The position numbers and the translations under genes are program-made. From contig CAMDWQ010000007.1 in the NCBI GenBank assembly GCA_945877765.1, positions 23,024-87,023 on the forward strand: a stretch of DNA of 64,000 nt, written 5' to 3'. Positions 2,952 to 53,707 of this stretch are shown piece after piece. Within the stretch, counting starts at the first letter, position 1; each line of letters opens with the position of its first letter. Under the pieces are notes generated by a model. That model saw nothing but the letters and a program-made list of their open reading frames with translations, was not told the origin of the DNA and did not search any database. Source of the DNA: Candidatus Omnitrophota bacterium (GTDB lineage Bacteria > Omnitrophota > Gorgyraeia > 2-02-FULL-51-18).

Positions 2952-3719
2952 TCAAAGAAAAAACCACAAAAGAACGGCGGCGAAAATCCGGTAGACGCCA
3001 AACACCACTAGATTGAACCGCTGAACAAAGCCGATGAATAATTTGATGCTAAGAATGGCGACTGCAAATGAAATTAGACAGCCCAGCGCCAGAGAGCCCC
3101 ACTCGGCAGAGGTGAATGCGTACGAGCTTTTCATCAAATCCAAAGCCGTCGCGGCTAGAAGCGTGGGCACCGCCAATAGAAATGAGAATTCGACAATCGT
3201 TTTACGTTGGATGCCAAGGCTTAAGCCTCCCAGAATGGTAGCGGCGGAGCGAGATACGCCCGGGATCACGGCAAAGGCCTGAAAAAATCCGATGAGAATC
3301 GCTTTGGGGTAGGGGATACGCGAAACGTCGTCCACAGAGTCCTTTTTTTCACGGTGATTTATTTCCAAGAAAATGAGGATGAAGCCGCCGATAAAAAGGG
3401 TGGCAATGACTACCATGGAATTCCCCAGCAAAAATTTTTTGATAAATTTGTATAGCAAAAAACCAATCACGGCGGTAGGAATGAAGGCGGCGATGATGCG
3501 CTTGACGGATTCAATATCAACGAACAAACGTTTCCAATAAAGAACGATGACGGAAAAAATGGTGCCGGCTTGAATGGCGATAATAAAGCTCTTCAAAAAT
3601 TCAGTCTCGGGAAGTTGGAGGAGGTTGCCTGCCAGAATTAAATGCCCAGTGGAAGAGACCGGAAGAAATTCCGTGATGCCCTCAACGAGGCTTAGAATAA
3701 AGATATGGAATAAGCTCAA
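2952..3719 (-). CDS. uppP: undecaprenyl-diphosphatase
   Basis: N-terminus MSLFHIFILSLVEGITEFLPVSSTGHL and internal PGVSRSAAT motifs are diagnostic of UppP/BacA. Confidence 0.9.
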   Translation of the reverse strand: MSLFHIFILSLVEGITEFLPVSSTGHLILAGNLLQLPETEFLKSFIIAIQAGTIFSVIVLYWKRLFVDIESVKRIIAAFIPTAVIGFLLYKFIKKFLLGNSMVVIATLFIGGFILIFLEINHREKKDSVDDVSRIPYPKAILIGFFQAFAVIPGVSRSAATILGGLSLGIQRKTIVEFSFLLAVPTLLAATALDLMKSSYAFTSAEWGSLALGCLISFAVAILSIKLFIGFVQRFNLVVFGVYRIFAAVLLWFFL

Positions 3720-3803
3720 AAAATACGCCCCTTCATGCGCGTGATTATAGCATAACGGACGAGGGTTGTGAGTGCCCCCTAAATTAGGTAGAATAGGGGA
3801 CTT

Positions 3804-5708
3804 ATGTGCGGCATATTCGGCTACTCAGGCAACAAACAGGCGCAAGGCCTTGTGATCCAGGGTTTGAAACACTTGGAATACAGAGGGTACGATTCCTCAG
3901 GCATTGCGATGCAGACTCATTCCCACAAGATTCTGATTGAAAAAACGCATGGCAAAATCAAAAACCTTGAAGCGACTTTAAAAAATAATCCTTTGTCGGG
4001 GACAACGGCCATCGGCCATACGCGGTGGGCGACCCACGGGATTCCTACTCCTGAAAATGCGCACCCGCACTTAAATGAATCCGATGAATTGGCGGTGGTG
4101 CACAACGGCATCATTGAAAATTATTTTGAATTGAAACAAGCCCTGCAGAAACAGGGTGTGCGTTTCCGGTCCGAGACGGATACTGAAGTCATTGTCCATT
4201 TGGTCGCCAAGTATTACAAAGGCAATCTCGAAGAAGCGGTGCGCCGCACGCTCAAGGATTTAAAGGGGACTTACGCGATTGCGGTCATTTCCTCCAGCGA
4301 ACCGGGAAAAATTGTTGCCGCGAAGATGGACAGCCCGCTAGTCATTGGCTCGACGAAAAAGGAAAGTTATCTAGCCAGCGACATCTCAGCCCTTCTCGAA
4401 CACACCAACCATGTGACATTTATCGAAAATGGCGATGTGGTCACGATGAACCAAGGTAGTTTTTCGATTACCGATATTGCGGGGAAAAAAATTTCACGGC
4501 CGGTGATGAAAATTGACTGGGATATTACGCAAGCCAAAAAGGGCGGTTACCAGCATTTCATGCTCAAGGAGATTTTTGAGCAGCCCGGAATTTTGACGGC
4601 TATTTTAAAAGAGCGAATTCGCGGGGGTGCCATTTATTTTGATGAGCTTAAAATTACGGCAGCGCAGTTTAAAAAGATTAAGCGGATTTTTATTATTGCT
4701 TGCGGCACGGCATACCATGCGGGCTTGACTGCCAAATATATTTTAGAGGACTTAGCCGGTATCCCGGTTTCCATTGATACCTCCAGCGAGTTTCGTTACC
4801 GTGATCCAAAAGTGGATAAAAGTACGTTGGTCATTGTTGTTTCGCAGAGCGGCGAAACGGCTGATACGCTGGCGGGTTTGAGGGAGGCCAAGGCGAAGGG
4901 CGCTATGACACTGGCGATCTGCAATGTGCTGGCAAGTTCTATCGCCCGCGAGGCTAAGGGAGTCATTTATACGCACGCGGGACCTGAAATCGCGGTGGCT
5001 TCGACCAAGGCATTTACCGCACAGCTGACGGTGTTAAGCCTTTTTGCGTTTTACCTAGGCGCTTTGTTCAAAACAATAAGCCCTAAAAAGGAAAAAGCGC
5101 TCTTAAAAGAGCTTTTGCTGACCCCTCACCGTATCCAGAAAATCCTGGATGGTTACAAAAAAGAAGAAGCCACCTGGAAGAAGAATGTGCATAACTTCAA
5201 CATCCATTACCACACCCAGCTTGAAAAATATTTTTCTGCCAAAAATCACGAACGCAAGCGCTCACCCAATGGACTTTTTTTATATTTGGGGCGCAACATC
5301 AATTATCCCATCGCTCTGGAAGGCGCTTTAAAACTTAAAGAAATTGCTTACATCCCAGCGGAGGGCTACCCGGCAGGAGAGATGAAGCATGGCCCGATTG
5401 CGCTGATTGATGAAAATCCCTGGGTGATATGCCTGGTGCCTGAATCTAAAACTTATGACAAGATGATTTCCAATATTCAGGAAATTCGCGCGCGCGGCGG
5501 GCGCATTATTCCGATTGTGACCGAGGGGGATAAGAAGATAGAGCGTCTGAATCCTGTGTTTACGATTGAAGTCCCCAAAACACCTGAGATTTTCTCGCCA
5601 CTCCTGACGGTCATTCCACTTCAGCTTTTTGCGTATTTGGTGGCTTTGGAATTTGGAGAAGATATTGATCAGCCGCGCAACTTGGCGAAATCGGTGACGG
5701 TGGAATAA
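3804..5708 (+). CDS. glmS: glutamine--fructose-6-phosphate aminotransferase (isomerizing)
   Basis: MCGIFGY Ntn-glutaminase start; two SIS domains; C-terminal ...VTVE. Confidence 0.95.
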   Translation: MCGIFGYSGNKQAQGLVIQGLKHLEYRGYDSSGIAMQTHSHKILIEKTHGKIKNLEATLKNNPLSGTTAIGHTRWATHGIPTPENAHPHLNESDELAVVHNGIIENYFELKQALQKQGVRFRSETDTEVIVHLVAKYYKGNLEEAVRRTLKDLKGTYAIAVISSSEPGKIVAAKMDSPLVIGSTKKESYLASDISALLEHTNHVTFIENGDVVTMNQGSFSITDIAGKKISRPVMKIDWDITQAKKGGYQHFMLKEIFEQPGILTAILKERIRGGAIYFDELKITAAQFKKIKRIFIIACGTAYHAGLTAKYILEDLAGIPVSIDTSSEFRYRDPKVDKSTLVIVVSQSGETADTLAGLREAKAKGAMTLAICNVLASSIAREAKGVIYTHAGPEIAVASTKAFTAQLTVLSLFAFYLGALFKTISPKKEKALLKELLLTPHRIQKILDGYKKEEATWKKNVHNFNIHYHTQLEKYFSAKNHERKRSPNGLFLYLGRNINYPIALEGALKLKEIAYIPAEGYPAGEMKHGPIALIDENPWVICLVPESKTYDKMISNIQEIRARGGRIIPIVTEGDKKIERLNPVFTIEVPKTPEIFSPLLTVIPLQLFAYLVALEFGEDIDQPRNLAKSVTVE

Positions 5709-5713
5709 TGTTA

Positions 5714-5845
5714 TTTCCCCTCCTTTCGAAGGAGGGGTGGTTGCGAAGCAACCGGGGTGGTTGAAGCTCTATTGTCCATGTACACATGTGTAAACCCCCA
5801 CAACCCCTCCGCCTTCGGCACCTCCCCTTCGTAAGGGGAGGAAAA
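5714..5845. repeat. Family A repeat, copy A2
   Basis: tttcccctcctttcgaaggaggggtgg ... caacccctccgccttcggcacctccccttcgtaaggggagg. Fills the glmS-rsmI intergenic space from stop codon to RBS. Confidence 0.85.
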
Positions 5846-11979: not shown

Positions 11980-12863
11980 AAACAAAGCCTTACCGCATCG
12001 TTTTTTATTACCTCTTGATTCTAATCCGCAGTTTCTTTTATTTATTTCCCTACCAGGTAGGTATTTGGGTGGGCAGGTTGTTGGGCCGTGTTGTTTTTTA
12101 CCTTCTTGCGAAAGAACGAAACAAGACGATTAGTAACCTGAGATTGGCATTCGGTGAGCAACCGTCTGATCAAGAGCTTCGCCGTATCGCGCGGGCGGTG
12201 TTTGAAAATTATGGCATGATTGCCGCGGAGACCCAGTTGGTTGGCAAAATCATTCCCTGTCTTGATCGATGGGTGGATATTGAGGGTAAGGAAATACTGG
12301 ATGAGGCCTTGAAAAAAGGCCATGGGGTCATTGGCCTGATCGCGCACTTCGGTGACTGGGAGTTGATGGGCGGGTACTTGGCAATGAAAGGCTATCCTAT
12401 GGTGGCTGTCGCACGGAAAATTTATTATGAAAAATACAACCAGCTTTTAATTCAGGCGCGTGAAAGAATGAGCATTCGAGTAATCTATCGCGATCGTTCT
12501 CCCAGGGAAATGCTGCGCACCCTAAAAAATAACGATGTGCTTGTCATCGCGGCCGACCAGGATGTAGATTCTTTAGACGGCGTGTTTGTTAATTTTTTTA
12601 GCCGACCCGCTTACACGCCAGTTGCGCCGGTAAGGTTTTCAATGGCGGCGGGGGCACCGATTATTCCTGCTTTTATTATACGAGAAGGTTTTAAGCACCG
12701 GATCATCATTGAAAAACCCATCGAACTTACATTTACGGGAAACAAAGAAACGGATTTAGTGGCCAACACCCAAAAATGGGTGTCATTGCAGGAACAGTAT
12801 ATCCGACAATATCCCCATCTATGGGTGTGGAATCATAAGCGGTGGAGAACTAAAAGTGTTTAA
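11976..12863 (+). CDS. lysophospholipid/lipid A (Kdo2-lipid IVA) acyltransferase, LpxL/HtrB family
   Basis: N-terminal TM, HX4D-type acyltransferase region (LIAHFGDWEL), C-terminal YPHLWVWNHKRWRTK. Start chosen at ATG overlapping the aguA stop (ATGA); the track ORF from 11916 would overlap aguA. Confidence 0.65.
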   Translation: MKTKPYRIVFYYLLILIRSFFYLFPYQVGIWVGRLLGRVVFYLLAKERNKTISNLRLAFGEQPSDQELRRIARAVFENYGMIAAETQLVGKIIPCLDRWVDIEGKEILDEALKKGHGVIGLIAHFGDWELMGGYLAMKGYPMVAVARKIYYEKYNQLLIQARERMSIRVIYRDRSPREMLRTLKNNDVLVIAADQDVDSLDGVFVNFFSRPAYTPVAPVRFSMAAGAPIIPAFIIREGFKHRIIIEKPIELTFTGNKETDLVANTQKWVSLQEQYIRQYPHLWVWNHKRWRTKSV

Positions 12864-12972
12864 CCACCCCGTCGCCTTCAGCGCCACCCCTCCTTCGTAA
12901 GGAGGGGAAAGAGAGCTCAATTTCCTCCCCTTACGAAGGGGAGGTGCCGAAGGCGGAGGGGTTGTAGGGTTT
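12864..12972. repeat. Family A repeat, copy A3 (reverse orientation)
   Basis: ccaccccgtcgccttcagcgccacccctccttcgtaaggagggg ... cctccccttacgaaggggaggtgccgaaggcggaggggttgtagg. Confidence 0.85.
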
Positions 12973-13132: not shown

Positions 13133-16100
13133 TTGTCTCATCAAATAATAAGCTTTCAAAAAGCGAAACTCAAAAATATGGGCCAAAAAAACCGCATCCA
13201 ATCATCCCCTAGGATTTACCCGCGGATTCTTCGTGTGATTTCTACCTGTCTTGTGCTTGCATTTACATTCAATGATTTTGCTCATGCGGCACCAGCGGAG
13301 TTGTTCACGCCGCGGATGGTGTTGAACCCGTCCAAGATCGAGTTTTCAGGCTCATTTGCTAAAGTAAGCGATGTATTTCAGGGTAAGAGCCCGCGTCTTT
13401 TGATCCACATTCAAGATGCGCACACCAACACCGGCGCTGAAAAAAATATTTCACAGACGCTGGAGGAATTGATCACCCGGTATCACATTAAAACAGTTTT
13501 CATGGAAGGCGGCACGCGGGATGATTCTCTGGATTTTCTGCGTCCGCTGGCTCCTCAAGAAGTGCGCGAGAAGATCGCGAAAAAATATCTGATGCAGGGT
13601 GAGCTAAACGGCGCCGAATATCTGAGCCTGGCTTCGGACCATTCCTTTAAGATTCTGGGTGTCGAAGACGCGTCGCTTTATCACCAAAATTTAAAGACGT
13701 ACGCCGCCGTCACCAAGCGCCGCGAGGCTGTCCTTTCCTATATAGGACAGATGGACCAGCGGGTTGATAGTATGAAGCGCCGCATTTACCCCAAAGCGCT
13801 CGTTGAGTTTGATGATTTTCTACAAAAATACAAAAATAAAGAAAAAAGCTTCACTGATTATTATACCGTGCTTTCTTCGACGGCCGTGCGTTACGGGATC
13901 AGTCTTCTGGGCTTTCCTCATTTTCTCTCACTGAAGGACCTCCAAGCCAAAGAAGACAGGATTGATTTTAAGAAAGCCAATACCGAACAAGCGGCGCTGG
14001 CAGGCCTTGTGTCCGACAAGACGCTGGCCGCTCACGCCGAAAAGATGAAATCCGGCAATTTAAATCCGCTGCCATTTTACGAGGCTGTTCTCGCCGAAGC
14101 CCATGCCAAGAAAATCAACTTGGGAGACTATCCCAACTTTTCGGCCTACGTAGACTATCTGCGAGATTATTCCAAGATTAAAATGGAGCGCCTCTTAAAC
14201 GAGACACGCATCTTAGAAGAAGTAATTTATCAGAAAGCGCTCCCCGAAGAAGATGTGTTTTACCTCTATCGGCTCGACAAGTACCTCAGCGTCTTAAAGA
14301 GCCTCTTTTCCCTGCAGGCGACGCCCCAGGAGTTTGACGACTATTCACTCCTGCAAAAGGACATGCGCTTTAACACCGCGGTCTGCCTGGCCTATATCAA
14401 CCGTAAATTATATGACCTAGGCAATTACGCCGATGTCGTGGCCACCGATTCTATTTTGGATGAGAACAAAAAAGAAATTGAAGATTTCTACCGCGTGACC
14501 GGCGACCGCGATGAGGTATTTTTAAACAAGTCGCTTGCTGAAATGGAAAAAAACAATATTTCCGCTGCCGTCCTCATCACCGGCGGCTATCACACTCCAA
14601 GCCTTCGTCAAAAAATGAAAGAACGCAACATCTCCTACGCCGTCGTGACTCCCGCGGTTACCGAAGAAACCAATCTCGTGCGTTATGAAAAAATTCTTCT
14701 TTCCCGCGCGGGTCTTGAGGCACAACTTCCTTTAGACAAAAAAGAAATCGTCAGTGGCCGCCAGGATTTTATCAACCCCACGCTTAACGCGGAAGTTCCG
14801 AGGACTCCGATCGTTTCAAAAATTAGTAGTGAATTCCAAATGCTGGGATTTCAACCCAGTACACCTAACAAAACTTTAAATGCTGCTAGGCTAGCTAAGG
14901 GAAAAATAACCCATCAAGATGCGTCCGCCGCGCGGTTGAGCGAGGCTGCTTCCTCTCAATCCCCAACAAAGCCGGCAAAGTTTTCTTTAAAAAGGTGGCT
15001 GTTAATTGGGGTCATCTCGTTTGCAATTTTGCAGATACTTCTTGTAAATGGTTCGCTCTACGTTGCGCTTTCAATACCACCAAGCGGCATGGTCACTGAT
15101 GCGCAGGAGGTCAATGGAGTGAGATCTTTAGGCCCTGTAAACACTATTCCTTACACAAGTATTCCTGCCCCTGGGTTTTTTGTTCGTGTGTTCAAATTTT
15201 TTGGGGGCACTACTAAGGGGGGGAATCCGGTTAAGTTTGAATATACTCCTAATGGTGAGAAGGTTACCCTTCCGGACGGGGAAGTGATATTAATAGTTCC
15301 AAAAAATACTTCAGCGCCTGAAAATGAGGAGGTAACCTCCGAAGCTTTAGGAGACGGTGCACGGTTGGCCAACTACACCCCGGTTTTGGGTATTGTGGCG
15401 GTAGTGGTGTTTATAGCCTCTGTCTTGCAAAATATCTCACGTAAAGCAGATCCAAATTACGTCCCAACGCCGGCAGAGGTGATTGAAGAACAAGCCATGA
15501 TAAACGATATTCGGAGTAGGGCCTTGGAGGTAGCAGGAAAAATTAGGCATGGGATTGGGGACATAGCCAGTGGCAGTATTTCTAAAAATGACAATTCCGT
15601 AAAAATTGCTTCTATATTATTTGAAGGGCTTGACCAAAAGGAAAAAAATATTTTTTTCTCTACTCTGATTGAGATCTTGCGTGAAGTGATCAATCCTGCT
15701 CATCAGTATCATGAAGACACACCAAGAATTTTATCTGTGCTGGCAGATTGGGGTAGGCTCAATCCAGAGAATTTGCAATTTTTAATTGCCCAGTTAAACA
15801 AAGAAGAAAACCCAGGTGTTGCGGAAATTCTCAAGACAGCTATCGGGGCACGAGAAATTACTACTAAACAAAATCGCGAACTTTCTCCTGAAGAGCGCCG
15901 TCAATTCGGGCTTTCTGAAAAACCATTTGATCCTAGAGATGCCAGCAAAGTCCTATTTAATTATAAGAGTGGTCCAATAGATAACGAGATGAAAGAAGGT
16001 AGTATTTTTGGATCATTTCCGTGGATTAGCGAGACTGAAGTAAAAAATACAGAAAAACCAGAGCCATCCGGGGCAGTGGATCCATCCGGAGGGGCGCGGT

Positions 16101-18919
16101 TGGCGGCGAGTCGGACCAAAACGATGAAAAAGTCAGACACGGGGCGACTTCAAAATTCAGCCGATGCCATGGTCAAGGATATTCGTAAGATGGATGGGCA
16201 TTTGCTTGGTCTTGCAAAATTAGTCCAGCGCCAAATGGGTCTTGAGTCCGACAATCCAAAAAAATCTCTGTTAATGATTCCTAATTCAATCCAGAAGCCT
16301 AATTTGAAAAGCTTGGCGGGGAAGCGCGCGGTTTATGCTGATCTTGGCGGCTCGACGCTTCACATGGGAGAGATTGAAATTGGTGTCGATGGAACGATCA
16401 CAGTGTTGTGGGAAAAGCCTATGCCTCTAGGGGATCATGTCTCCGAGGGGGGTTCTAAACTTTTTGATTTCATGGCTCAGCAGATCCTTCAGACGGTCCG
16501 CGAAAAGTCAGGTGATCTTGAACAGCCAAAGATCATGGGTTTTACGTTCTCATTTCCTCATCAAAATGGTGTTGTTATCAAAAAATCCAGCACCAAAGGG
16601 TTTAATTTTAGTGACATCATCGGCCAAAATGTCATGGAGCTAATGAATGAGCGTCTTAAAAAAAGCAGTGCTAAATATGGTATTAAACAACTTGAAGTCG
16701 TTGCAGTTACCAATGATACCGAGGGTGCCATGGTTCAGGGAATGGTGCGCTTCAAAAATGCCCTTGTCAGCGTCATCGCCGGGTCCGGATTTAACACGGC
16801 TGTCTGGTGGCTTAATCAGATGTTTAATATGGAGTCAGGGGGCCTTCGTATTCGGAACAATTGGCTGGGTAAGCATGATTTGAAGGTGATGAAGCGTGGT
16901 GCCGAAGAGCTGATTTCCGGACATTTTTTGGGTCTTCAGCTTCGCGCGCGGCTTTTAGATCTGGTAAGAAACTACGGTCTTTTTGGCGGAAAAGTGACTA
17001 GGGCTCTTAGGCTAAGAAAAGGGATTTCATCCGAAATCGTGACGAGTATTTATGAGGCTCGCAGCAATAGGAAAATACAAGAAATTTTGAGCACTATCGG
17101 AATAACTAACGTAAGTAATCAAGACGCTCAGATCGTCAAGGAAATCTCAAGCGCTCTTGTAGAGCGTTCGTTTAAGGTTAACGCAGGGATCATTGCGGGA
17201 TCATTAGCTAAAACAAAGACAACCAAAAGGGCCCAGGTAGCTGTTGATGGTGCCTTATGGAAAATACCTGCTTACACAAGAGGAGTGCAGAGACAGCTTA
17301 ATCTACTTTTACAGGAACTTAATTTACCCAGAGCCCAAATCAGAAGGGTCAATAATGCTTCCGGAATTGGATCGGCGGTCACGGCGTTAGTTGTTAATTC
17401 TCAACAAGACTCCGCCGCTCGGCTTGCTACTAAAACAGAAGAAACGAATCCCCCATTAACGGTTTACTACGTTGGCCGCGATGATCGATCAATCCAAATA
17501 AGTCATGGAGTGGGATTTGGGACTCAGGTGTACTATAGAGATGTTCCTGAGTCACTGAATTTAAAAAATTTAAATAGACAACAGGCTATGGGGGCACTGG
17601 TACAGATCGCCGATGCACTTGATGCTCAACTTCCCGGAGATAAGCATGATTTACGTTTTCGTCCTAGTAAGGATGATTCGGCTAGAGCAGCAAATAAAGA
17701 TATTCGCCAAAAAATATCAAATGTAGTGCAAGGATTAAAATTTGATATTCCCGGTGCAGCCCGGCTTGCTACGAGCCCGGCGAAGTCAGTTGTGGATGAT
17801 AAGTCAGCTGTTTTAAATGTGCTTCAGGACAGCCTTGCCACCCAAGGTTCTCGTTTATCATCAGAGAGTCATTTTGGTGGATCTCAAGCTGAATTAATTC
17901 CAGACACCACCCAAGTCGCAGCGCGTCTTGCGGCTGCTAATGAGAGTAAAATTTCCCTAGCAAAGCGCCTGCAGTATCCCTTTCTTTTATTGTTAACGTC
18001 GCTAAGCATCGTGACGTTTGATTTTGCCCAGGAGAACGGACAAGGATCAATAGCGATTGATATTCAAGTGCAAGACGCTGACCCCGCTGTTTCATCAATT
18101 AGGTTACATCCGAGGCAGTTTAAGGCTGCTATAGCGGGTGAACTGATCAATTTTATCAACACCGCAGCTTTTGAAGCCGCTGGCAATGCGCGCAATCTGT
18201 TAAGCCAAAATGTTCCCGCATGGAGCTATGAGGATGCGGTATGGAATCCTCTGATGAAAGCGCCCCTGACTAACGCGAGCGGTATTCAAGCGGTGGAAGT
18301 ATTTCTTCCCGCGACGATTTTAAAGAATGTGGCAGATCTTCGTCAGGCGCTTCAAAAGGCCAGCATGGTGTCTAAGAGCCGCGGGGTTCACATCGTGATC
18401 AATATTCTTTCTAAGGAGGGAAACCTTACGCCGTCCGAAAGAACTCTAATTGACAAAGAAATTTCCGCCATAGGGAATTCTCGTTTAGGGGTAGATTATC
18501 GCTCGGTCAGCGAGGGACAGACGCTATCAGAAGCTGCCCTGGAAAAACTTGCCGAGCAGCAAGAAGGCCTGGAAAAATTAAAGCAAGGGACTACTAAAGT
18601 AATGTTAATCGCCAGCTCTTCTAACGAGCAGGAGATTTTGAGTCAGATTGGAACGATTGATGCCGTTTACCGGGATAGCATTTTTTCGGCGGGCGCCGAT
18701 ATTCTGTCCAACGAACAGGCAAATCTTGGCGCGTTTTCTCTGGCTGAGATGATGGCTGTTTCACTTTACCAGGCCATGGGACTTGAGACGATGCTACCCT
18801 CCATCCTGAATTTACGATCTGTTATCGTGTCTGGGCGCCGTTTGTTTATTTTTACCTTCAATCTCAACCAGGAACTGGTTTTACTTCGCCTGGCACGCCA
18901 AGCCGAAATCGCCGCTTAA
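13133..18919 (+). CDS. giant (1928 aa) secreted/membrane modular protein: N-terminal signal peptide, Tiki/ChaN-like(?) domain, 2 TM helices, helical module, complete eukaryote-type hexokinase domain (aa ~1060-1425), and two C-terminal modules of unknown function
   Basis: Single uninterrupted ORF. Signal peptide ...VLAFTFNDFAHA/AP. TM helices at nt ~14990-15065 and ~15380-15425. Hexokinase hallmarks: ADLGGSTLHMGEIEIG, MGFTFSFPHQ, STKGFNFSD, VAVTNDTEGAMV, VIAGSGFNTAVW, VAVDGALWKIPAYTR...ASGIGSAVTA. Seven [G/A]ARLA motifs. An alternative start MGQKN lies at 13178. Confidence 0.8.
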   Translation: MSHQIISFQKAKLKNMGQKNRIQSSPRIYPRILRVISTCLVLAFTFNDFAHAAPAELFTPRMVLNPSKIEFSGSFAKVSDVFQGKSPRLLIHIQDAHTNTGAEKNISQTLEELITRYHIKTVFMEGGTRDDSLDFLRPLAPQEVREKIAKKYLMQGELNGAEYLSLASDHSFKILGVEDASLYHQNLKTYAAVTKRREAVLSYIGQMDQRVDSMKRRIYPKALVEFDDFLQKYKNKEKSFTDYYTVLSSTAVRYGISLLGFPHFLSLKDLQAKEDRIDFKKANTEQAALAGLVSDKTLAAHAEKMKSGNLNPLPFYEAVLAEAHAKKINLGDYPNFSAYVDYLRDYSKIKMERLLNETRILEEVIYQKALPEEDVFYLYRLDKYLSVLKSLFSLQATPQEFDDYSLLQKDMRFNTAVCLAYINRKLYDLGNYADVVATDSILDENKKEIEDFYRVTGDRDEVFLNKSLAEMEKNNISAAVLITGGYHTPSLRQKMKERNISYAVVTPAVTEETNLVRYEKILLSRAGLEAQLPLDKKEIVSGRQDFINPTLNAEVPRTPIVSKISSEFQMLGFQPSTPNKTLNAARLAKGKITHQDASAARLSEAASSQSPTKPAKFSLKRWLLIGVISFAILQILLVNGSLYVALSIPPSGMVTDAQEVNGVRSLGPVNTIPYTSIPAPGFFVRVFKFFGGTTKGGNPVKFEYTPNGEKVTLPDGEVILIVPKNTSAPENEEVTSEALGDGARLANYTPVLGIVAVVVFIASVLQNISRKADPNYVPTPAEVIEEQAMINDIRSRALEVAGKIRHGIGDIASGSISKNDNSVKIASILFEGLDQKEKNIFFSTLIEILREVINPAHQYHEDTPRILSVLADWGRLNPENLQFLIAQLNKEENPGVAEILKTAIGAREITTKQNRELSPEERRQFGLSEKPFDPRDASKVLFNYKSGPIDNEMKEGSIFGSFPWISETEVKNTEKPEPSGAVDPSGGARLAASRTKTMKKSDTGRLQNSADAMVKDIRKMDGHLLGLAKLVQRQMGLESDNPKKSLLMIPNSIQKPNLKSLAGKRAVYADLGGSTLHMGEIEIGVDGTITVLWEKPMPLGDHVSEGGSKLFDFMAQQILQTVREKSGDLEQPKIMGFTFSFPHQNGVVIKKSSTKGFNFSDIIGQNVMELMNERLKKSSAKYGIKQLEVVAVTNDTEGAMVQGMVRFKNALVSVIAGSGFNTAVWWLNQMFNMESGGLRIRNNWLGKHDLKVMKRGAEELISGHFLGLQLRARLLDLVRNYGLFGGKVTRALRLRKGISSEIVTSIYEARSNRKIQEILSTIGITNVSNQDAQIVKEISSALVERSFKVNAGIIAGSLAKTKTTKRAQVAVDGALWKIPAYTRGVQRQLNLLLQELNLPRAQIRRVNNASGIGSAVTALVVNSQQDSAARLATKTEETNPPLTVYYVGRDDRSIQISHGVGFGTQVYYRDVPESLNLKNLNRQQAMGALVQIADALDAQLPGDKHDLRFRPSKDDSARAANKDIRQKISNVVQGLKFDIPGAARLATSPAKSVVDDKSAVLNVLQDSLATQGSRLSSESHFGGSQAELIPDTTQVAARLAAANESKISLAKRLQYPFLLLLTSLSIVTFDFAQENGQGSIAIDIQVQDADPAVSSIRLHPRQFKAAIAGELINFINTAAFEAAGNARNLLSQNVPAWSYEDAVWNPLMKAPLTNASGIQAVEVFLPATILKNVADLRQALQKASMVSKSRGVHIVINILSKEGNLTPSERTLIDKEISAIGNSRLGVDYRSVSEGQTLSEAALEKLAEQQEGLEKLKQGTTKVMLIASSSNEQEILSQIGTIDAVYRDSIFSAGADILSNEQANLGAFSLAEMMAVSLYQAMGLETMLPSILNLRSVIVSGRRLFIFTFNLNQELVLLRLARQAEIAA

Positions 18920-19011
18920 CCCCTTACATTATATTTCAGGGGTTGCTTTTTCTTTAAAACGTTGTATACTTTAACTATCGATAGATAAAACGTAAAACAA
19001 ATGAGGCCGCT

Positions 19012-19221
19012 ATGTCACAGGTACTTGTATCCACCAAATATCAGGTCGTGATTCCCAAGGATGTCCGAAGGCAATTGGAAATACATCCCGGGCAGAAGAT
19101 GAGTTGTATTGCGATTAATCGGGCGATTCATTTGGTGCCGGTTAAGCCGATGAGTCAGTCAAGGGGGATTGCCAAAGGGATTTCTCTTGTTGGATATCGA
19201 GAGAAAAAGGACCGCATGTGA
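19012..19221 (+). CDS. vapB: type II antitoxin, AbrB/MazE/SpoVT-type (VapB-like)
   Basis: 69-aa MSQVLVSTKYQVVIPKDVRRQLEIHPGQKM swapped-hairpin DNA-binding domain; 4-nt overlap with the downstream PIN gene. Confidence 0.7.
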   Translation: MSQVLVSTKYQVVIPKDVRRQLEIHPGQKMSCIAINRAIHLVPVKPMSQSRGIAKGISLVGYREKKDRM

Positions 19222-19604
19222 TTGTTATTGATTCCTCGGGGTGGCTTGAGTATTTTATGAATGGGCCTCTGGCGGAGCGCTACGCTTTGTATTTTTCAAA
19301 ATCTTCAAAAATATTGACGCCTGCGGTGGTGCTTTATGAAGTATTTAAGATTTTAAAAAGAGATGCGAGTGAAGAAGTGGCGTTGGAAGCCGCGGCGCAG
19401 ATGGGGGAGACTGAGATTGTGCCTCTATCGGACGCTATTTCCTATCATGCGGCCAATATTTCACTCGAACATCATTTGGCGATGGCTGACTCAATGGTTT
19501 ACGCGACCGCAGATTTTTGCAAAGCTAAGCTTGTGACCAGTGATGCGGATTTCAAAAATCTCCCAAATGTAATTTATCTGGATTCACAAGAACCGGAAAG
19601 GTAA
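19218..19604 (+). CDS. vapC: PIN-domain toxin
   Basis: 128 aa with MIVIDSSGWLEYF (Asp5), LYEVFKIL (Glu) and TSDADF (Asp) PIN acidic residues; the operon architecture is classic vapBC. Confidence 0.75.
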   Translation: MIVIDSSGWLEYFMNGPLAERYALYFSKSSKILTPAVVLYEVFKILKRDASEEVALEAAAQMGETEIVPLSDAISYHAANISLEHHLAMADSMVYATADFCKAKLVTSDADFKNLPNVIYLDSQEPER

Positions 19605-19628
19605 AGTTCTTAGTATTGAATACTTAAA

Positions 19629-19889
19629 GTGGTAAATGGAGAAGTGATGAAAACCTGCCAGTTAAACGTCAGAATCAGCGAAAGAACCTATAAGACCTTA
19701 ATAGAGCTTTCTAAAAAACTATACACAACAAAATCTTTTTTAATTGAAAAGGGGATTGATTTATTAAAAGAAAATTTTGATAGAATTGACAAAAGGCCTC
19801 ACCCCAAGCCAGCTTCTGATGCTTTTTCTGTCGCCCTTTCCAAGGTTAATAAAAAGCACTCCAGAACCCTTAAAAAACTTGCTGAATAA
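19629..19889 (+). CDS. small ribbon-helix-helix (CopG/Arc-like) protein, orphan antitoxin-like
   Basis: LNVRISERTYKTLIELSKKLYTTKSFLIEKGIDLL resembles an RHH fold; overlaps the annotated aroD 5' end in another frame, so one of the two starts is misplaced. Confidence 0.35.
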   Translation: MVNGEVMKTCQLNVRISERTYKTLIELSKKLYTTKSFLIEKGIDLLKENFDRIDKRPHPKPASDAFSVALSKVNKKHSRTLKKLAE

Positions 19890-20568
19890 AATTATAAATT
19901 CATTTCGAATCGCCGTCCCTTTTACTGACAAGACACCCCTTTCGGCTATTCAACTTGCCCGAAAAGAGGGAATGGGCATCGCGGAGCTGCGTATCGATCT
20001 TTACTCTTCCTATTCAAATGATCACGTTCTGCGAGAAGTCCGCAAATTTAAAAAAATCAAGACCATTGCAACCATCCGATCCAAAAGGGAAGGTGGTCAG
20101 TGGACGGGGCATGAAAAAAAACGCTTGGCTCTTTTTAAGGCAGTGCTACCACAGGTAGACACGGTGGATATCGAGCTGAGTTCACGCTCAATTTTAAAAG
20201 AGACTATCGCCGAAGCCCATCGCTTAAAAAAAACAGTCATTGTGTCCTATCACAATTTTAAAAAAACTCCGTCTTCTTTGGCACTTCTGGGGATTTTGAA
20301 GCAGGCCAAACGGGCCGGCGCTGACATCGTGAAAATTGCGGCGATGGCGCGTTCTAAAAAGGATATGCGAACCTTGGCGGAATTCACTCTCACGCATGCC
20401 AAAGAAGGTCTCATCACGCTCTCCATGGGGAAAGAGGGGGCGTTATCGCGGATATTGTTTCCATCGCTAGGCTCTCTTCTTACGTTTGCTCACACCGGTC
20501 ATTCGACGGCTCCCGGGCAGATGGATCTTAAAACGACGGCCTTTTTCTTCAAAAAACTCTATTCCTAA
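19777..20568 (+). CDS. aroD: 3-dehydroquinate dehydratase, type I
   Basis: AELRIDLY, VIVSYHNFKKTP, IVKIAAMARSKKDM (Schiff-base Lys region). The true start is probably internal (~19819, MLFLSPF...) to avoid overlap. Confidence 0.75.
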   Translation: MIELTKGLTPSQLLMLFLSPFPRLIKSTPEPLKNLLNKIINSFRIAVPFTDKTPLSAIQLARKEGMGIAELRIDLYSSYSNDHVLREVRKFKKIKTIATIRSKREGGQWTGHEKKRLALFKAVLPQVDTVDIELSSRSILKETIAEAHRLKKTVIVSYHNFKKTPSSLALLGILKQAKRAGADIVKIAAMARSKKDMRTLAEFTLTHAKEGLITLSMGKEGALSRILFPSLGSLLTFAHTGHSTAPGQMDLKTTAFFFKKLYS

Positions 20569-20586
20569 GCGGTTTCTCCGCCAAGA

Positions 20587-21954
20587 GTGACAGCTATTGC
20601 CGCTTCTGATATAATCAAACTCTTTTCTAGAGACTTTAACCCGAGCTTTGGAGCCAACTTGATTAGCCGCTATACACTCCCCGAAATGGGGAAGATTTGG
20701 ACCGAGGAAAACCGGTTCAAAGTCATGCTGGAGGTGGAAGTTGCCGCTTGCCAGGCGATGGCAGCGCTGCATCTAATCCCCGCTAAGTCTGCTGTTAATA
20801 TCCGTAAAAAAGCCTCCTTCAAATTGTCACAAATCCATAAATACGAAGAGGTTACAAAACACGATGTGACCGCTTTTCTAAAAAGTATTGCTGATTTTGT
20901 GGGCCCTGATGCGCGTTTTATCCATAAGGGCCTGACATCTAGTGACGTGTTAGATACGGCCTTAAGCCTTCAGATCCGTGAAGGCCTGGATCTTCTGATT
21001 CAAAATACCCAAGAATTTGCCACTATTTTGAAGAAAAAAGCAGTGCAATACCGGGATACGCCCATGATAGGCCGGTCGCACGGGGTGCATGGCGAACCGG
21101 TGACTTTGGGTCTTAAGTTTTTGCTTTTTTATGATGAATTTCGCCGCAATCTACTGCGTCTGGAAAATGCCCGCAAAGTGATTTCTTATGGAAAAATTTC
21201 AGGCGCCGTCGGCACTTATGCCAACATCGATCCGCGTGTCGAGGACAAAACTTTAAAGCTATTGAAATTAAAAACAGCCCCTGTGTCAACCCAAGTGCTT
21301 CAGCGTGACCGACATGCGGAGGTGCTTTCTGCGTTGGCCATTCTTGGCGGCTCGCTTGAGAAACTCGCGACGGAAATCCGGCATCTACAAAAAACGGAAA
21401 CGCTCGAAGTGGAAGAGCCTTTCTCCGAGGGTCAGACAGGTTCTAGTGCCATGCCTCACAAGAGAAACCCCGTCAATTGCGAGCGCATCGCGGGCCTTGC
21501 GCGTGTGCTTCGCGGCAACTCTCACGCGGCGGTTGAAAACATTGCGCTGTGGCACGAGCGGGATATTACCCATTCGTCGGTGGAGAGAATCATCTTGCCG
21601 GATTCCTTTATCCTCGCGCATTTTATGATTTCGGAAATGGCGGCGGTGATCAGGGGCCTGCACGTGTATCCCGAAAACATGATGGACAATATTTGGAAAA
21701 CCCGCGGCCTGATTTTCTCTCAGCGTGTGCTTCTGGCACTGATTGACAAGGGACTCTTGCGTGAAGCCGCTTACAAAATCGTGCAAAAAAACGCGATGCG
21801 CGTCTGGAAGGATAAAAATTTGAATTTAAAAGATCTGCTTCTAGATGAAAAAGAAGTGATGGCTCATTTTTCAAAGAAGGAAATTGAGTCGCTATTTCAC
21901 TTGGATTATCACTTAAAGCATGTGGCGACGATTTTTAAGAGGGTGTTAAAATAA
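20587..21954 (+). CDS. purB: adenylosuccinate lyase
   Basis: SRYTLPEMGKIW N-terminus, fumarate-lyase signature GSSAMPHKRNPVNCE; GTG start. Confidence 0.9.
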   Translation: MTAIAASDIIKLFSRDFNPSFGANLISRYTLPEMGKIWTEENRFKVMLEVEVAACQAMAALHLIPAKSAVNIRKKASFKLSQIHKYEEVTKHDVTAFLKSIADFVGPDARFIHKGLTSSDVLDTALSLQIREGLDLLIQNTQEFATILKKKAVQYRDTPMIGRSHGVHGEPVTLGLKFLLFYDEFRRNLLRLENARKVISYGKISGAVGTYANIDPRVEDKTLKLLKLKTAPVSTQVLQRDRHAEVLSALAILGGSLEKLATEIRHLQKTETLEVEEPFSEGQTGSSAMPHKRNPVNCERIAGLARVLRGNSHAAVENIALWHERDITHSSVERIILPDSFILAHFMISEMAAVIRGLHVYPENMMDNIWKTRGLIFSQRVLLALIDKGLLREAAYKIVQKNAMRVWKDKNLNLKDLLLDEKEVMAHFSKKEIESLFHLDYHLKHVATIFKRVLK

Positions 21955-21955
21955 T

Positions 21956-22075
21956 TTTCCCCTCCTCACGAAGGAGGGGTGGAGTCGAAGGCGCCGGGGT
22001 GGTTGAAGGGTTGTGCTTCACAAAAACCTTACAACCCCTCCGCCTTCGGCACCTCCCCTTCGAAAGGGGAGGAAA
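21956..22075. repeat. Family A repeat, copy A4
   Basis: Lies between the purB stop and the purS RBS; the track ORF 21979.. is repeat read-through into purS. Confidence 0.85.
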
Positions 22076-22333: not shown

Positions 22334-22455
22334 TTTTCCTCCCCTTTCGAAGGGGAGGTGCCGAAGGCAGAGGGGTTGTAAGGTGTGTGTATAAAGTGTG
22401 ACGCATCAACCGCCCCGTCGCCTCGGCGCCACCCCTCCTTCGTAAGGAGGGGAAA
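22334..22455. repeat. Family A repeat, copy A5 (reverse orientation)
   Basis: cctcccctttcgaaggggaggtgccgaaggcagaggggttgtaagg ... ccgccccgtcgcctcggcgccacccctccttcgtaaggagggg. Confidence 0.85.
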
Positions 22456-36387: not shown

Positions 36388-36512
36388 CTTTCCTCCCCTT
36401 TCGAAGGGGAGGTGCCGAAGGCGGAGGGGTTGTAAGGTGATACATAGGCTGTTGTACTGCGTCAACCACCCCGTCGCTTCGGCGACACCCCTCCTTCGTA
36501 AGGAGGGGAAAA
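36388..36512. repeat. Family A repeat, copy A6 (reverse orientation)
   Basis: cctcccctttcgaaggggaggtgccgaaggcggaggggttgtaagg ... ccaccccgtcgcttcggcgacacccctccttcgtaaggagggg. Confidence 0.85.
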
Positions 36513-36576: not shown

Positions 36577-38211
36577 GTGTTCTGGAGAAAATTTAAAGTA
36601 TTTTGGTGGAATCACTGGGTCAAGTTTATGGTGCTTGGCTGGTTGGTTTTCATTTTCTGGTTTCCCGCAGTCTCTCTAGGTTCTCTTGATAAGTATCAGC
36701 GCGACTACATGGTCGCCTTTTTGTCTACCACGGGTTTACAGGCGACGGTTAGTGCGGTGGTATTTGTATGCCTATATTCGTGGGTTCTCCAGGGTGGACT
36801 TCAGAAACTTCGCAACGCTAAAGTCAAAAGCGATGCCGTCAACATTAAGTGGAAAGATGTCATTGGTATTGATTCCGCCAAGGCTGAAGCCAAAGAAATC
36901 GTTGAACTGATCAAAGACCGTGCGCGCATCAAAAAAATCGGTGGCAACATTATTCGCGGCATGCTCATGATGGGGCCTCCTGGCTGCGGAAAAACCTATC
37001 TTGCCAAGGCGATGGCCACGGAAGCAGGCGTACCTTTTATCTCCATGTCCGGCTCTGAATTTACAGAAATGTATGTCGGTGTCGGTGCTTCCCGTGTGCG
37101 TCAACTGTTTAACAAAGCCCGTCGTTTGGCCTATGCCGATGGAGGATGCATCATATTTATCGATGAAATTGACGCGATTGGCCACAAGCGTGTGCATGAC
37201 ACAGGATTTGGCGGTATGCAGGAAAGAAATACGACGCTTAACCAGCTTCTGGTCGAAATGGACGGCCTGGGAGCGAAGTCGGAAAACGTCGTAATTATCG
37301 GTGCGACAAACGCGCCCGAAAGCATCATGGACGATGCGTTATTGAGGCCAGGGCGTTTTGACCGCAAAATTTTTGTCAGTAAGCCCTCGATGATTGAAAG
37401 AGAAGAGCTTTTCCGTTTCTATCTTTCCAAGGTCAAATGCGAAGACAATATCGATATCGGCAAAGTGGCCCGCAAAGCGGTCGGATCAAGTCCTGCGGAT
37501 ATTGCCAATCTCACCAAAGAAGCGGCATTGATCGCTACTCGCAATAAAGTGGACAAGATCAGTGAAGACCATTTGTCCGAAGCGATGGAAAGAATATATT
37601 TAGGACTTAAGAGCAACATCCGCTTGACCGAAAAAGATAAAATGATGACGGCCTATCACGAGACGGGTCACCTGATCGTGCTTTATCTTTTACATCCGAC
37701 AGATGATGTCTTTAAAGCAACGATTATCCCGCGCGGAAACGCACTGGGTCTTGTTTCGCATCTGCCGCCGGATGATAAGTATTCGGTGGACCGCAACGAG
37801 CTTTTGGCCAATATCAAAGTATCTTTGGCTGGCTACGTGGCTGAAAAAATGAAATTTAACACAACCACCAGCGGTGTTCACAGCGATTTTGAAAAAGCCA
37901 TGTGGACGGCGCATCGCATGGTGTGGGATCTGGGAATGGGCAAGAGCAATTGGGTGGGTAATTATAGTTCTATTCCTGCCAACCAGTTGTCCGACGACAT
38001 CAAGCAAAAACTCAATCAAGAAACTCAAGAAATTGTTCAAGACTGCATGAAAGATGTTGAAAAGCTCTTAAGAGATGAAAATGTAATTTTTGAGCGTTTT
38101 GCCCAGGAGCTTATCAAGAAAGAAGAGCTCGATTATGATGACATCGAAGCCATTTTCAAAGAATACGGGAAATCAAATCCCCGTATCACGTCTAAATTCA
38201 TTCCGCAATAA
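36577..38211 (+). CDS. ftsH: FtsH-family AAA+ zinc metalloprotease (short paralog with minimal periplasmic loop)
   Basis: Walker A GPPGCGKTYLAKA, SRH, M41 HETGHLIV (HEXXH); only 544 aa, with two closely spaced N-terminal TM helices. Confidence 0.8.
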   Translation: MFWRKFKVFWWNHWVKFMVLGWLVFIFWFPAVSLGSLDKYQRDYMVAFLSTTGLQATVSAVVFVCLYSWVLQGGLQKLRNAKVKSDAVNIKWKDVIGIDSAKAEAKEIVELIKDRARIKKIGGNIIRGMLMMGPPGCGKTYLAKAMATEAGVPFISMSGSEFTEMYVGVGASRVRQLFNKARRLAYADGGCIIFIDEIDAIGHKRVHDTGFGGMQERNTTLNQLLVEMDGLGAKSENVVIIGATNAPESIMDDALLRPGRFDRKIFVSKPSMIEREELFRFYLSKVKCEDNIDIGKVARKAVGSSPADIANLTKEAALIATRNKVDKISEDHLSEAMERIYLGLKSNIRLTEKDKMMTAYHETGHLIVLYLLHPTDDVFKATIIPRGNALGLVSHLPPDDKYSVDRNELLANIKVSLAGYVAEKMKFNTTTSGVHSDFEKAMWTAHRMVWDLGMGKSNWVGNYSSIPANQLSDDIKQKLNQETQEIVQDCMKDVEKLLRDENVIFERFAQELIKKEELDYDDIEAIFKEYGKSNPRITSKFIPQ

Positions 38212-38219
38212 GCGGCTCT

Positions 38220-40200: not shown

Positions 40201-40271
40201 TGCCCTGTGGTGTAACGGTAGCACACGGCCCTTTGGAGGCCAGAGTCATGGTTCGAATCCATGCGGGGCAG
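40201..40271 (+). tRNA. tRNA-Gln (anticodon UUG)
   Basis: Cloverleaf folds by hand: acceptor TGCCCTG/CGGGGCA with U1-A72 and discriminator G73 (Gln identity), U8, D-stem GTGT/GCAC with G18G19, anticodon loop C-U-UUG-G-A, T-arm CATGG-TTCGAAT-CCATG. No encoded CCA. Confidence 0.8.
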
Positions 40272-53584: not shown

Positions 53585-53707
53585 TTTCCCCTCCTTTCGA
53601 AGGAGGGGTGGCGCCGAAGGCGACGGGGTGGTTGAACACGCTACGTTTCATACATAAACCCCCGCAACCCCTCCGCCTCCGGCACCTCCCCTTCGAAAGG
53701 GGAGGAA
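53585..53707. repeat. Family A repeat, copy A8
   Basis: ttcccctcctttcgaaggaggggtggcgccgaaggcgacggggtgg...caacccctccgcctccggcacctccccttcgaaaggggagg. The element ends 2 nt before the lpxC ATG, so its terminal GGAGG acts as the SD. Confidence 0.85.

Follow-up and report, generated by a model that had tools for sequence, protein, structure and literature searches.

Relation to giant proteins and modular effectors

Omnitrophota are abundant, uncultured, host-dependent nanobacteria. As far as the accessible parts of two preprints go, their giant membrane proteins contain enzyme domains, glycolytic ones included, and one such protein carries nine copies of the hexokinase domain PF03727 (10.1101/2023.11.21.568195; 10.64898/2026.06.07.730766). 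In the portions of this literature at hand, the N-terminal regions of the giants are described as having no identifiable domains except C39 and S8 peptidases, and West-Roberts et al. suspected that the giants are cleaved but lacked the cleavage points. Whether these multi-enzyme proteins act as single chains or are cut is an open puzzle, for which we describe a compact case: a gene for a protein of 1.9 thousand residues in a stretch of 64,000 nucleotides (the window) from a Candidatus Omnitrophota bacterium (assembly GCA_945877765.1, contig CAMDWQ010000007.1, positions 23,024 to 87,023). The gene very probably encodes a small member of a very large protein family of modular architecture, in which a conserved N-terminal head is followed by variable cargo and a C-terminal tail. 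Our preferred reading, to which we assign a probability of about 0.5, is that its product is an exported, modular polyprotein or effector carrier that is cut at a short linker motif.

The described Omnitrophota multi-enzyme membrane proteins, Archaeovorins among them, resemble this protein in combining a signal peptide and/or transmembrane (TM) helices with unrelated enzyme domains in one chain, and the names on homologous proteins from metagenome-assembled genomes (MAGs) point to the same kind of organisms. They differ in size: the studies catalogue proteins of at least 10,000 to 30,000 amino acids (Archaeovorins, at least 30,000), compared with 1,913 here and at most 7,482 in the family members sampled. 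Our literature searches and the available preprint text contain no mention of a TIKI-like head, a punctuation by [GA]AR[LM][AST], tail families, a head–cargo–tail layout or the replacement of cargo at a locus. Enzyme domains in Omnitrophota giants were already known; what is apparently new is the fold of the head, the linker motif and the turnover of cargo.

Two further systems show a comparable layout. The effectors of MARTX proteins (multifunctional autoprocessing repeats-in-toxin) are freed at small-Leu-small sites in unstructured linkers (PMC2900308), and the ends of these proteins are conserved around a variable central effector array, as stated in the part of the source at hand (PMC5218395). 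The family described here likewise has conserved termini and variable central modules, the P/S/T-rich linkers between its modules have a short Leu-containing motif that may be a processing site, and the MARTX effector RRSP belongs to the fold class predicted for the head. However, Pfam searches detected no RTX repeats, C80 cysteine protease or type-1 secretion signal, an N-terminal Sec signal being present instead; the TIKI-fold domain is the constant head here and a cargo effector there; and the cargo here comprises metabolic and signalling enzymes, not known toxins. We regard the resemblance as one of analogy, not homology. In polymorphic toxin and effector loci, too, the N-terminal region stays constant while what follows it at the one locus is hypervariable, but no toxin domains, immunity gene or secretion-system genes were found in the neighbourhood of the gene.

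A conserved head domain with a TIKI-like model

The head is the part of the protein that is shared most widely. A profile built from 22 diverse heads (A1) was searched against 1.84 billion cluster representatives (50%-identity clusters) and matched 10,314 of them at E ≤ 1e-3 and 7,276 at E ≤ 1e-30. In the matched proteins, it always occupies residues ~40-550, and the best 150 matches reach a length of 7,482 residues. Present in more than 10,000 clusters, it has no Pfam or NCBIfam model: the head sequence did not match Pfam TraB_PrgY_gumN, Erythro_esteras or Cofac_haem_bdg even at E ≤ 10, the A1 profile gave zero matches among PDB sequences, and the search of NCBIfam with the whole protein gave none. 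Invariant positions of the head alignment are Q79, D80, H82, E110-G111, G161, Y168, Y438, R444, G469-G470-x-H472 (TGG[FY]H), P492 and Y503 (residue numbers throughout are those of the 1,913-residue product that starts at ATG 13178; Table 1). The window protein has the features by which we recognise the family, namely a signal peptide and a head at residues ~40-550 with QDxH, EG and GG[FY]H. Its head has a ratio of non-synonymous to synonymous polymorphism (pN/pS) of 0.10 against a 98%-identical homologue (P0001), which indicates purifying selection.

With the head alignment as input, AlphaFold2 returned a confident model (predicted local distance difference test, pLDDT, 87; predicted template modelling score, pTM, 0.78). 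In it, a small alpha/beta core, whose sheet is parallel, is interrupted by ~300 residues of inserted helices. No PDB entry matched the head significantly in a Foldseek search. Structural comparison of the model with single proteins scored 10.5 for HopBA1, 10.1 for ChaN, 9.6 and 9.2 for two Bacillus 'succinoglycan biosynthesis' proteins (Bcr proteins of the erythromycin-esterase type), 9.1 for a TraB-family protein and 8.9 for EreC. The modelled core, a parallel sheet between helices, can as an overall fold be superposed on solved TIKI/TraB/ChaN/Ere members, and D80-x-H82, E110 and H472, which are invariant in the 22 diverse sequences, directly follow model strands 30-36, 62-65 and 419-425. RRSP has its catalytic set, E3900/H3902, E3930 and H4030, close to core strands β4, β5 and β7 (PMC6254334). 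The D-x-H…E…H residues of the head occur in the same order as this 2His/2Glu set, with Asp in place of the first Glu. We therefore consider it likely, as far as a model allows, that the head belongs to the TIKI/Ere/ChaN fold class, and its catalytic competence is plausible.

The likeness to the TIKI/TraB-PrgY/GumN/ChaN/Ere/RRSP/HopBA1 superfamily lies in the acid-x-His, Glu and His residues placed after successive core strands. The head differs from this superfamily in having no sequence-profile match to any of its Pfam or PDB members, in the insertion that splits its core and in the Asp at the first Glu position. Many superfamily members, such as TIKI and PrgY, are extracytoplasmic or membrane-tethered peptidases.

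The helical insertion (head model residues ~121-414, window ~13,670-14,550) gave weak Foldseek matches to alpha-pore-forming toxins of the ClyA family (AhlC, AhlB, SmhB, XaxA, YaxA, MakA and ClyA), all non-significant (E 0.7-4, probability <0.1). Such matches could merely reflect long helical bundles.

Different cargo behind the same head

Queried with the full-length sequence, the database yielded 78 matches of 1,000-3,300 amino acids. Nearly all named matches come from Candidatus Omnitrophota/Omnitrophica MAGs, with a few from Elusimicrobiota, Auribacterota and Eisenbacteria; a locus search with the single sequence found three close genomic loci, labelled as "uncultured Planctomycetia" MAGs. 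In BLAST alignments, the similarity to the 78 proteins is confined to residues ~15-510 of the query and to the N-terminus of each match. Downstream of the head, Pfam domains of many kinds occur. They include sugar enzymes (PGI, PGM, a 6-phosphogluconolactonase-type domain and phosphotransferase system enzyme I) and glycogen enzymes (glycogen phosphorylase, debranching enzyme and 4-alpha-glucanotransferase), as well as UDP-glucose dehydrogenase, methyltransferases, metallophosphoesterases, DnaJ and AAA ATPases. Signalling and regulatory domains are represented by HATPase_c, response regulators, Ser/Thr kinases and sigma-70 region 4. In the window protein, the cargo starts with a membrane segment of two helices and one orphan module, which are followed by a hexokinase of divergent sequence and a pair of small orphan modules.

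The exchange of cargo can be followed at one syntenic locus, which lies between CN-hydrolase/agmatine deiminase and the ADSL-pur operon. There, the window encodes the 1,913-residue protein with its hexokinase; a related contig (L002) encodes a protein of more than 3,600 residues whose head is 74% identical and which has a mannitol dehydrogenase module and 16 linker motifs, being otherwise dissimilar to the query; and a third genome encodes a protein of 3,108 residues (P0006) with a 49% identical head and a PAS domain as cargo. By sequence comparison, orthologous loci thus hold the same head with quite different cargo, and the cargo is exchangeable. The first-pass annotation had presented the protein as a lone curiosity built around its kinase; we find instead that the kinase is exchangeable cargo, and that the head, the linker motif and the tail are the conserved, defining parts. 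The ratio of non-synonymous to synonymous substitution rates (dN/dS) was not computable for the cargo, the sole close homologue being 100% identical across it.

Further members show the head in other settings. A second member of the family, located elsewhere and flanked by nuo genes, is present in at least one related genome. On contig L008, a stand-alone head gene (P0204, 537 residues with a signal peptide; 1274-2887) ends straight after the domain and is followed ~100 nt downstream by a PGM-like gene (2988-4430). PGM is a fused cargo in many members, and the two genes are a fusion/fission pair that links head and PGM functionally.

At the other end of the proteins, the last ~400 residues fall into several tail families (66, 22, 5 and 5 members). 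The query tail may belong to the five-member type c3 (P0007, P0011, P0213, P0235 and P0249), with which it aligns collinearly (alignment A2) at 15-20% identity and with an hhalign probability of 31% (E 5e-4), a similarity that BLAST does not find; query and c3 tails end alike in …LLS.R….AA-COOH. No convincing relation to tail families c1, c2 or c4 was seen. The AlphaFold2 model of the tail is of low confidence (pLDDT 54). A database search with the C-terminal 317 residues found no homologue, but word-index searches with the tail only and with the hexokinase only also failed to return the 98%-identical P0001 and are therefore insensitive. No Pfam or NCBIfam family was recognised outside the hexokinase domain, which agrees with the first-pass annotation for the C-terminal sequence.

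A five-residue motif at module boundaries

The modules of the window protein are separated by the pentapeptide [GA]-A-R-[LM]-[AST]. Seven copies, at residues 569, 584, 727, 972, 1413, 1527 and 1581, all lie in linkers between modules, with none in the head or the hexokinase envelope, so that the protein belongs to the subclade with at least three copies (hereafter the GARLA subclade). All remaining open reading frames (ORFs) of at least 100 residues in the 64-kb window together contain a single copy. Family-wide statistics rest on 204 sampled proteins, unless stated otherwise. Their cargo contains 294 copies against 8.8 expected from composition, a 33-fold enrichment; their heads contain just 4 copies in 110,000 residues. 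One member of 7,482 residues (P0235) has 31 copies in the form GAR[ML]A, mostly G-A-R-M-A.

The placement of the motif is equally regular. From the TGG[FY]H anchor to the first motif, the distance has a median of 103 residues in 41 members and is exactly 103 in the query; from the last motif to the C-terminus, the median is 353 in the family and the distance 333 in the query. Motif-delimited modules have a median length of 326 residues. None of the 12 Pfam envelopes checked in six proteins contains a motif, and several motifs stand 7-45 residues ahead of a domain start (for example, at 1756 in P0002, where hexokinase begins at 1765, and at 724 in P0004, where GFO_IDH_MocA begins at 731). On either side of the motif, P, S, T, A and Q are over-represented, and aromatic residues and Cys are under-represented. 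Homologous modules occur at differing ordinal positions across proteins, with similarity spanning the entire module. Two lineages have variants, SGARxA in P0014 (11 copies) and RSEAR in P0073 (about 6 copies), which suggests that signal and reader co-evolve.

These regularities could also arise if the motif were the translated footprint of a DNA recombination joint (GGC GCG CGG TTG GCG) that serves in-frame cassette exchange and generates diversity. The wholly unlike cargo of orthologous loci and the shuffled module positions would fit such a joint, as would a 7-kb tract of 100% identity to another contig amid DNA of 82-90% identity, a possible sign of recent recombination at the locus. The codons are not random either: in the L002 gene (6713-15787), 14 of 16 copies are encoded by GCG-CGG-TTG, codons that make up 34%, 19% and 28% of the gene's Ala, Arg and Leu codons, and the query has CGG in 5 of 7 copies, compared with 16% overall. 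The uniformity in L002 may stem from recent intragenic duplication, gene conversion or a nucleotide-level role. Against a DNA joint, P0019, P0015 and the query use many Arg and Leu codons for the same conserved residues, and this variation implies selection at the peptide level. Moreover, the left edge of the identical tract (window ~14,100) falls within the head and not at a motif, and 12-15 nt would be very short for homologous exchange. We consider a recombination joint improbable; it would in any case be compatible with a polyprotein rather than exclusive of it. The motif is very likely a functional signal of the peptide, and that this signal is a cleavage site is conceivable at somewhat less than even odds.

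A genuine but divergent hexokinase as cargo

The module between motifs 4 and 5 is, by sequence, a genuine hexokinase-type domain and not a ROK/GlcK kinase. In Pfam searches of the whole protein, Hexokinase_1 (PF00349) matched residues 1017-1188 (E 2e-22, 80.4 bits, cut-off 24.3) and Hexokinase_2 (PF03727) residues 1238-1405 (E 2e-21, 76.9 bits, cut-off 24). These two are the only Pfam models that match the protein at E ≤ 1; ROK (PF00480), Glucokinase (PF02685) and BcrAD_BadFG gave no match at that threshold, and NCBIfam gave none. The sequence blocks of the family, those named in the first-pass annotation among them, are present as well: DLGGS at 1055, GFTFSFP at 1121, TKGF at 1139, NDTEG at 1179, GSGFN at 1202, NMESGG at 1217, EELISG at 1243, VDGALWK at 1356 and ASGIGSA at 1394. 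The best solved relatives are human HK1 and HK2 (E ~6e-43). Alignment with eukaryotic and metagenomic hexokinases and a HMMER comparison with HK1 showed that the catalytic and glucose-binding residues D1180, S1125, K1140, N1206, E1219 and E1243 are present, with D1180 in NDTEG as the likely catalytic base.

In common with human HK1, glucokinase and yeast Hxk2, the domain has DLGG, the Asp of NDT and the glucose ligands in FSFP, TKGF, G(S/T)GxN, NxE(W/S)G and E(K/E)xxSG. It differs from them in being embedded between linker motifs in a signal-peptide protein of 1,913 residues, and in its details. Of the ATP-binding motifs, DLGGS, GSG and ASGIG are kept, with GTG changed to GSG, and DG[ST] reads DGA (T to A); the residue before the second glucose-binding Glu is changed from Gln to Arg; and two loops are shortened, one between GSGFN and NMES and the other after NMESGG. 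The identity is only ~26-28% to every hexokinase found, those of its own relatives included. The label "eukaryote-type" therefore stands at the level of the Pfam family and not beyond it, an identity of ~26% being too low to infer a eukaryotic origin of the kinase, which we set aside. Nor is the architecture undescribed, as had been supposed: besides the hexokinases that the two preprints place within Omnitrophota giants, P0249 (5928-6381) and P0002 also have hexokinase modules that are delimited by motifs and comparable in length.

The divergence allows for a non-catalytic role, in which the hexokinase fold would serve an exported adhesin or coat protein as a surface module, either binding sugar in the manner of a lectin or being purely structural. 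The low scores and identities, the changes at ATP-contacting positions (DGT to DGA, GTG to GSG) and the shortened loops would be in keeping with this, predicted export offers no ATP source, and published work has suggested that Omnitrophota giant proteins function in adhesion and in the cell wall. However, NDT Asp, DLGG and the Lys, Asn and Glu glucose ligands have been kept over a long divergence, which argues for selection on catalysis, and the remaining cargo of the family is a broad range of enzymes, not of binding domains. We consider a non-catalytic module quite improbable and, from the residues retained, lean towards an active kinase.

Signal peptide and hydrophobic segments

The signal peptide of the first-pass annotation reads heuristically as a classical Sec-type one, with a positive n-region, an h-region of 12-15 residues and the site …FAHA-AP. 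A signal-peptide-like N-terminus with a conserved AxA occurs, by the same heuristic, in 186 of the 204 sampled members (…SYA-AP or …AFA-D/E elsewhere), and 137 of the 204 have no further strong TM segment. In the window protein, the two TM helices annotated previously (TM2 and TM3) were found again, together with a third, weaker segment in the tail module (TM4) that had not been listed.

The tail start, after the last motif, resembles an internal signal peptide, with basic residues, YPxLL and a hydrophobic stretch of 13-17 residues, and a small-x-small site (…KRLQYPFLLLLTSLSIVTFDFAQ…, window 17933-18040, residues 1586-1621); the tails of P0235 and P0011 have a similar element, and KPAKFSLKR similarly precedes TM2. 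If the precursor were cut before membrane insertion, segments after motifs would serve as new N-terminal signals. A preferential placing of TM-like segments just after motifs was considered and dropped, the enrichment being just ~2-fold (16% versus 8% within 30 residues).

Signal-peptide parity places the kinase outside the membrane; the positive-inside rule at TM2, TM3 and TM4 places it inside, with residues 755-1597 in the cytoplasm. The main rival to a cut polyprotein, which we hold to be unlikely, builds on the latter. The protein would be an uncut metabolic scaffold tethered to the inner membrane, its kinase being the cell's own cytoplasmic hexokinase, possibly coupled to sugar uptake, and the motif a hinge or docking peptide. 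ATP is at hand only in the cytoplasm, the catalytic and glucose-binding residues are conserved, and some cargo types of the family (response regulators, sigma-70 region 4, DnaJ and AAA ATPases) are typical of the cytoplasm. In the accessible part of one preprint, stand-alone hexokinase is found in 25 of 176 and PGI in 67 of 176 Omnitrophota genomes, so that embedded copies could be housekeeping enzymes (10.64898/2026.06.07.730766). The separate PGM-like protein beside the head gene on L008 lacks a signal peptide. A scaffold is, however, difficult to reconcile with a textbook cleavable Sec signal and its family-wide AxA site, and with the 137 members that have no further strong TM segment, in which the cargo would follow the head across the membrane. 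A hinge leaves the 33-fold enrichment of a sequence-specific five-residue motif unexplained, and housekeeping enzymes are not expected to differ wholly at an orthologous locus.

Proposed processing at the linker motif

In the preferred reading, a polyprotein or effector carrier cut at the motif, the signal peptide would direct the precursor through Sec, and the motif would be a proteolytic processing site at which modules are released or hinged apart. The candidate protease that needs the fewest assumptions is the head, as a putative hydrolase, another protease being the alternative; that the head is a protease is, from its model, possible but tentative. The cut could fall between Leu and Ala/Ser/Thr (P1/P1'), with a cut after Arg equally possible. 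The hexokinase would phosphorylate hexose where ATP is present; a shared compartment or the interior of a host or prey cell is the most plausible place. The Omnitrophota-like bacteria of which this family is typical belong to the Planctomycetes–Verrucomicrobia–Chlamydiae (PVC) group. Chlamydia would be a precedent by analogy within that group, as it secretes phosphoglucomutase and enzymes of glycogen metabolism into the inclusion. The literature has proposed a host-dependent or predatory lifestyle for Omnitrophota; together with the sugar and glycogen cargo (PGM, PGI, 6-phosphogluconolactonase type, glycogen phosphorylase and debranching enzyme), this lifestyle suggests that the modules act on host or prey carbohydrate. 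The earlier proposal of a multi-domain secreted effector is borne out to the extent that the protein is multi-modular and bears a signal peptide; its effector-like role stays plausible.

A more specific version combines these steps: the TIKI-fold head would cut its own chain between [LM] and [AST] of [GA]-A-R-[LM]-[AST] and free the cargo outside the cell or into a host or prey cell, in more than 10,000 variants, with the hexokinase capturing host sugar. We regard this version as less likely than not.

Several points weigh against the preferred reading. Cleavage at the motif is something we infer by analogy, and the motif is limited to a single subclade, at least three copies being present in 41 of the 204 sampled members (33 by the stricter [GA]ARL[AST]) and none in 137. 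Since the head is universal and the motif is not, the function of the head is not exclusively tied to the motif. No replacement punctuation motif was found in members without GARLA, where the enriched k-mers came from PGM domains. The codon uniformity in L002 would also allow for recent duplication or for a role of the DNA itself, and the TIKI superfamily also holds esterases, haem-binding proteins and non-enzymes such as ChaN. As to the kinase, its Pfam scores are low (80 and 77 bits versus 192 and 164 for P0002), it has the Gln-to-Arg change adjoining the second glucose-binding Glu (EK/EE), and an exported ATP-dependent kinase would have no obvious ATP source unless delivered into another cell. 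Finally, the positive-inside rule puts head and kinase in the cytoplasm, contradicting the signal peptide, and the PGM-like protein on L008 is made without one.

Integrity of the gene and its surroundings

The frame is open for 1928 codons from TTG 13133 (13133..18919, forward strand), as annotated at first, although ATG 13178 is the likelier start: public gene calls and signal-peptide logic favour it and give the product of 1,913 residues (MGQKNRIQ…). An independent ENA contig (L001) is mosaic relative to the window. A tract of 7 kb (window ~14,100-21,100), covering the last third of the head, the entire cargo, vapBC, the dehydroquinase gene and part of ADSL, is 100% identical; the upstream DNA is 82% identical, the far downstream DNA has also diverged, and the overall identity outside the tract is 82-90%. 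The tract is due either to related populations having recombined recently or to an assembly that joined different strains. Strain mixing could in principle extend to the gene itself, making it an assembly chimera, or it could be a decaying pseudogene that remains open by chance. This is effectively refuted by a frame of 5.7 kb without a stop, the uniform GC content and the purifying selection on the head. In addition, the exact protein is encoded by three contigs, of which one is 5-10 kb and the other two are 50-200 kb in length (an ENA contig of 87.5 kb being one of the two), and is listed under NCBI, Logan and ENA, and its layout of signal peptide, head, motifs and tail is common to thousands of relatives.

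Table 1. Positions of features of the giant gene and of its surroundings. Positions are counted in the window; residues are those of the 1,913-residue product.
Feature	Residues	Positions	Strand	Remarks
Whole gene	1-1913	13178..18919	+	1913 residues plus stop; identical product in public gene calls
Sec-type signal peptide	1-37	13178..13288	+	n-region MGQKNRIQSSPRIYPRILR, h-region VISTCLVLAFTF, predicted cleavage between AHA and AP; heuristic reading of sequence
Conserved head domain	45-519	13310..14734	+	modelled as small alpha/beta core with ~300-residue helical insertion
HIQDAH	Q79, D80, H82	13406-13423	+	invariant head residues
FMEGG	E110	13499-13513	+	invariant head residue
ITGGYH	H472	14576-14593	+	invariant head residue
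Linker motif 1, AARLA	569-573	14882..14896	+	first motif past head
Linker motif 2, AARLS	584-588	14927..14941	+	
Hydrophobic segment TM2	606-630	14993..15067	+	Kyte-Doolittle scan and flank charges
Linker motif 3, GARLA	727-731	15356..15370	+	
Hydrophobic segment TM3	736-754	15383..15439	+	strongest of the three internal segments
Module 3	755-971	15440..16090	+	no family; no Pfam match at E<0.1; no similarity to other members; putatively helical in the first-pass annotation
Linker motif 4, GARLA	972-976	16091..16105	+	N-terminal boundary of hexokinase module
Hexokinase module	977-1412	16106..17413	+	Pfam envelope 1017-1405 (nt 16226-17392); bounded by motifs at 972 and 1413
Linker motif 5, AARLA	1413-1417	17414..17428	+	8 residues past end of hexokinase domain
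Two short orphan modules	1418-1526 and 1532-1580	17429..17917	+	motif 6 between them; GSRLS copy inside
Linker motif 6, AARLA	1527-1531	17756-17770	+	between the two short orphan modules
Degenerate copy, GSRLS	1557-1561	17846-17860	+	
Linker motif 7, AARLA	1581-1585	17918..17932	+	boundary of tail module
Tail module	1586-1913	17933..18916	+	begins with signal-peptide-like KRLQYPFLLLLTSLSIVTFDFAQ; ends ...LRLARQAEIAA-COOH
Hydrophobic segment TM4	1598-1616	17969-18025	+	weaker; within tail module
MazE/AbrB-type antitoxin and PIN toxin		19012-19604		between giant gene and ADSL
Type I dehydroquinase		19777-20568		between giant gene and ADSL
Palindromic intergenic repeat		478-498, 5717-5737, 12887-12907, 21959-21977		core CCTCCTTCGTAAGGAGGGG with longer complementary arms
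Palindromic intergenic repeat, further sites		22432-22452, 36488-36508, 53588-53608		

Upstream of the gene lie genes for GlmS, PEP carboxylase, CN-hydrolase, agmatine deiminase and LpxL, and downstream of it vapBC, dehydroquinase, ADSL, the pur operon, SHMT, FtsH, ClpX, DnaB and BamA; judged by its sequence context, the gene is located in the core chromosome. The vapBC pair reported by the first-pass annotation was recovered as a MazE-type antitoxin and a PIN toxin. This pair and the dehydroquinase gene are also present in L001 and missing at the syntenic locus of P0006, where ADSL directly follows the giant gene. The absence of the vapBC-like pair there suggests a local insertion, probably unrelated to the giant gene.

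The upstream repeat of that annotation (its Family A) likewise proved real: it is a palindromic repeat with seven sites in the window against none expected, and looks REP-like (repetitive extragenic palindromic) or terminator-like. Upstream of the giant gene, one copy extends over ~12,862-12,970, and copies on L001 match several window sites at 82-88% identity. The promoter that had been assigned to the gene found no support, as scans for consensus promoters and terminators upstream of it did no better than on shuffled sequences.

An Rfam scan of the window returned one tRNA only. This tRNA gene (40201-40271) is followed by a gene for a YhcG-type PDDEXK nuclease/DUF1016 protein (40342-41361), and a small integrated element may have its edge here; the adjoining ORF (38090-39289, 399 residues) has no Pfam match.

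Meaning for Omnitrophota and their giant proteins

The hexokinase is genuine yet incidental, and the carrier system is what matters. With a head of peptidase-type fold, an enriched boundary motif and the swap of cargo at a fixed site, this protein offers three handles by which the polyprotein question becomes testable. Calls of hexokinase or PGI in such genomes may reflect exported cargo and not cytoplasmic glycolysis. If the head does cut at the motif, the motif would be the missing cleavage map for the Omnitrophota giants, and the hexokinase would be a secreted metabolic effector.

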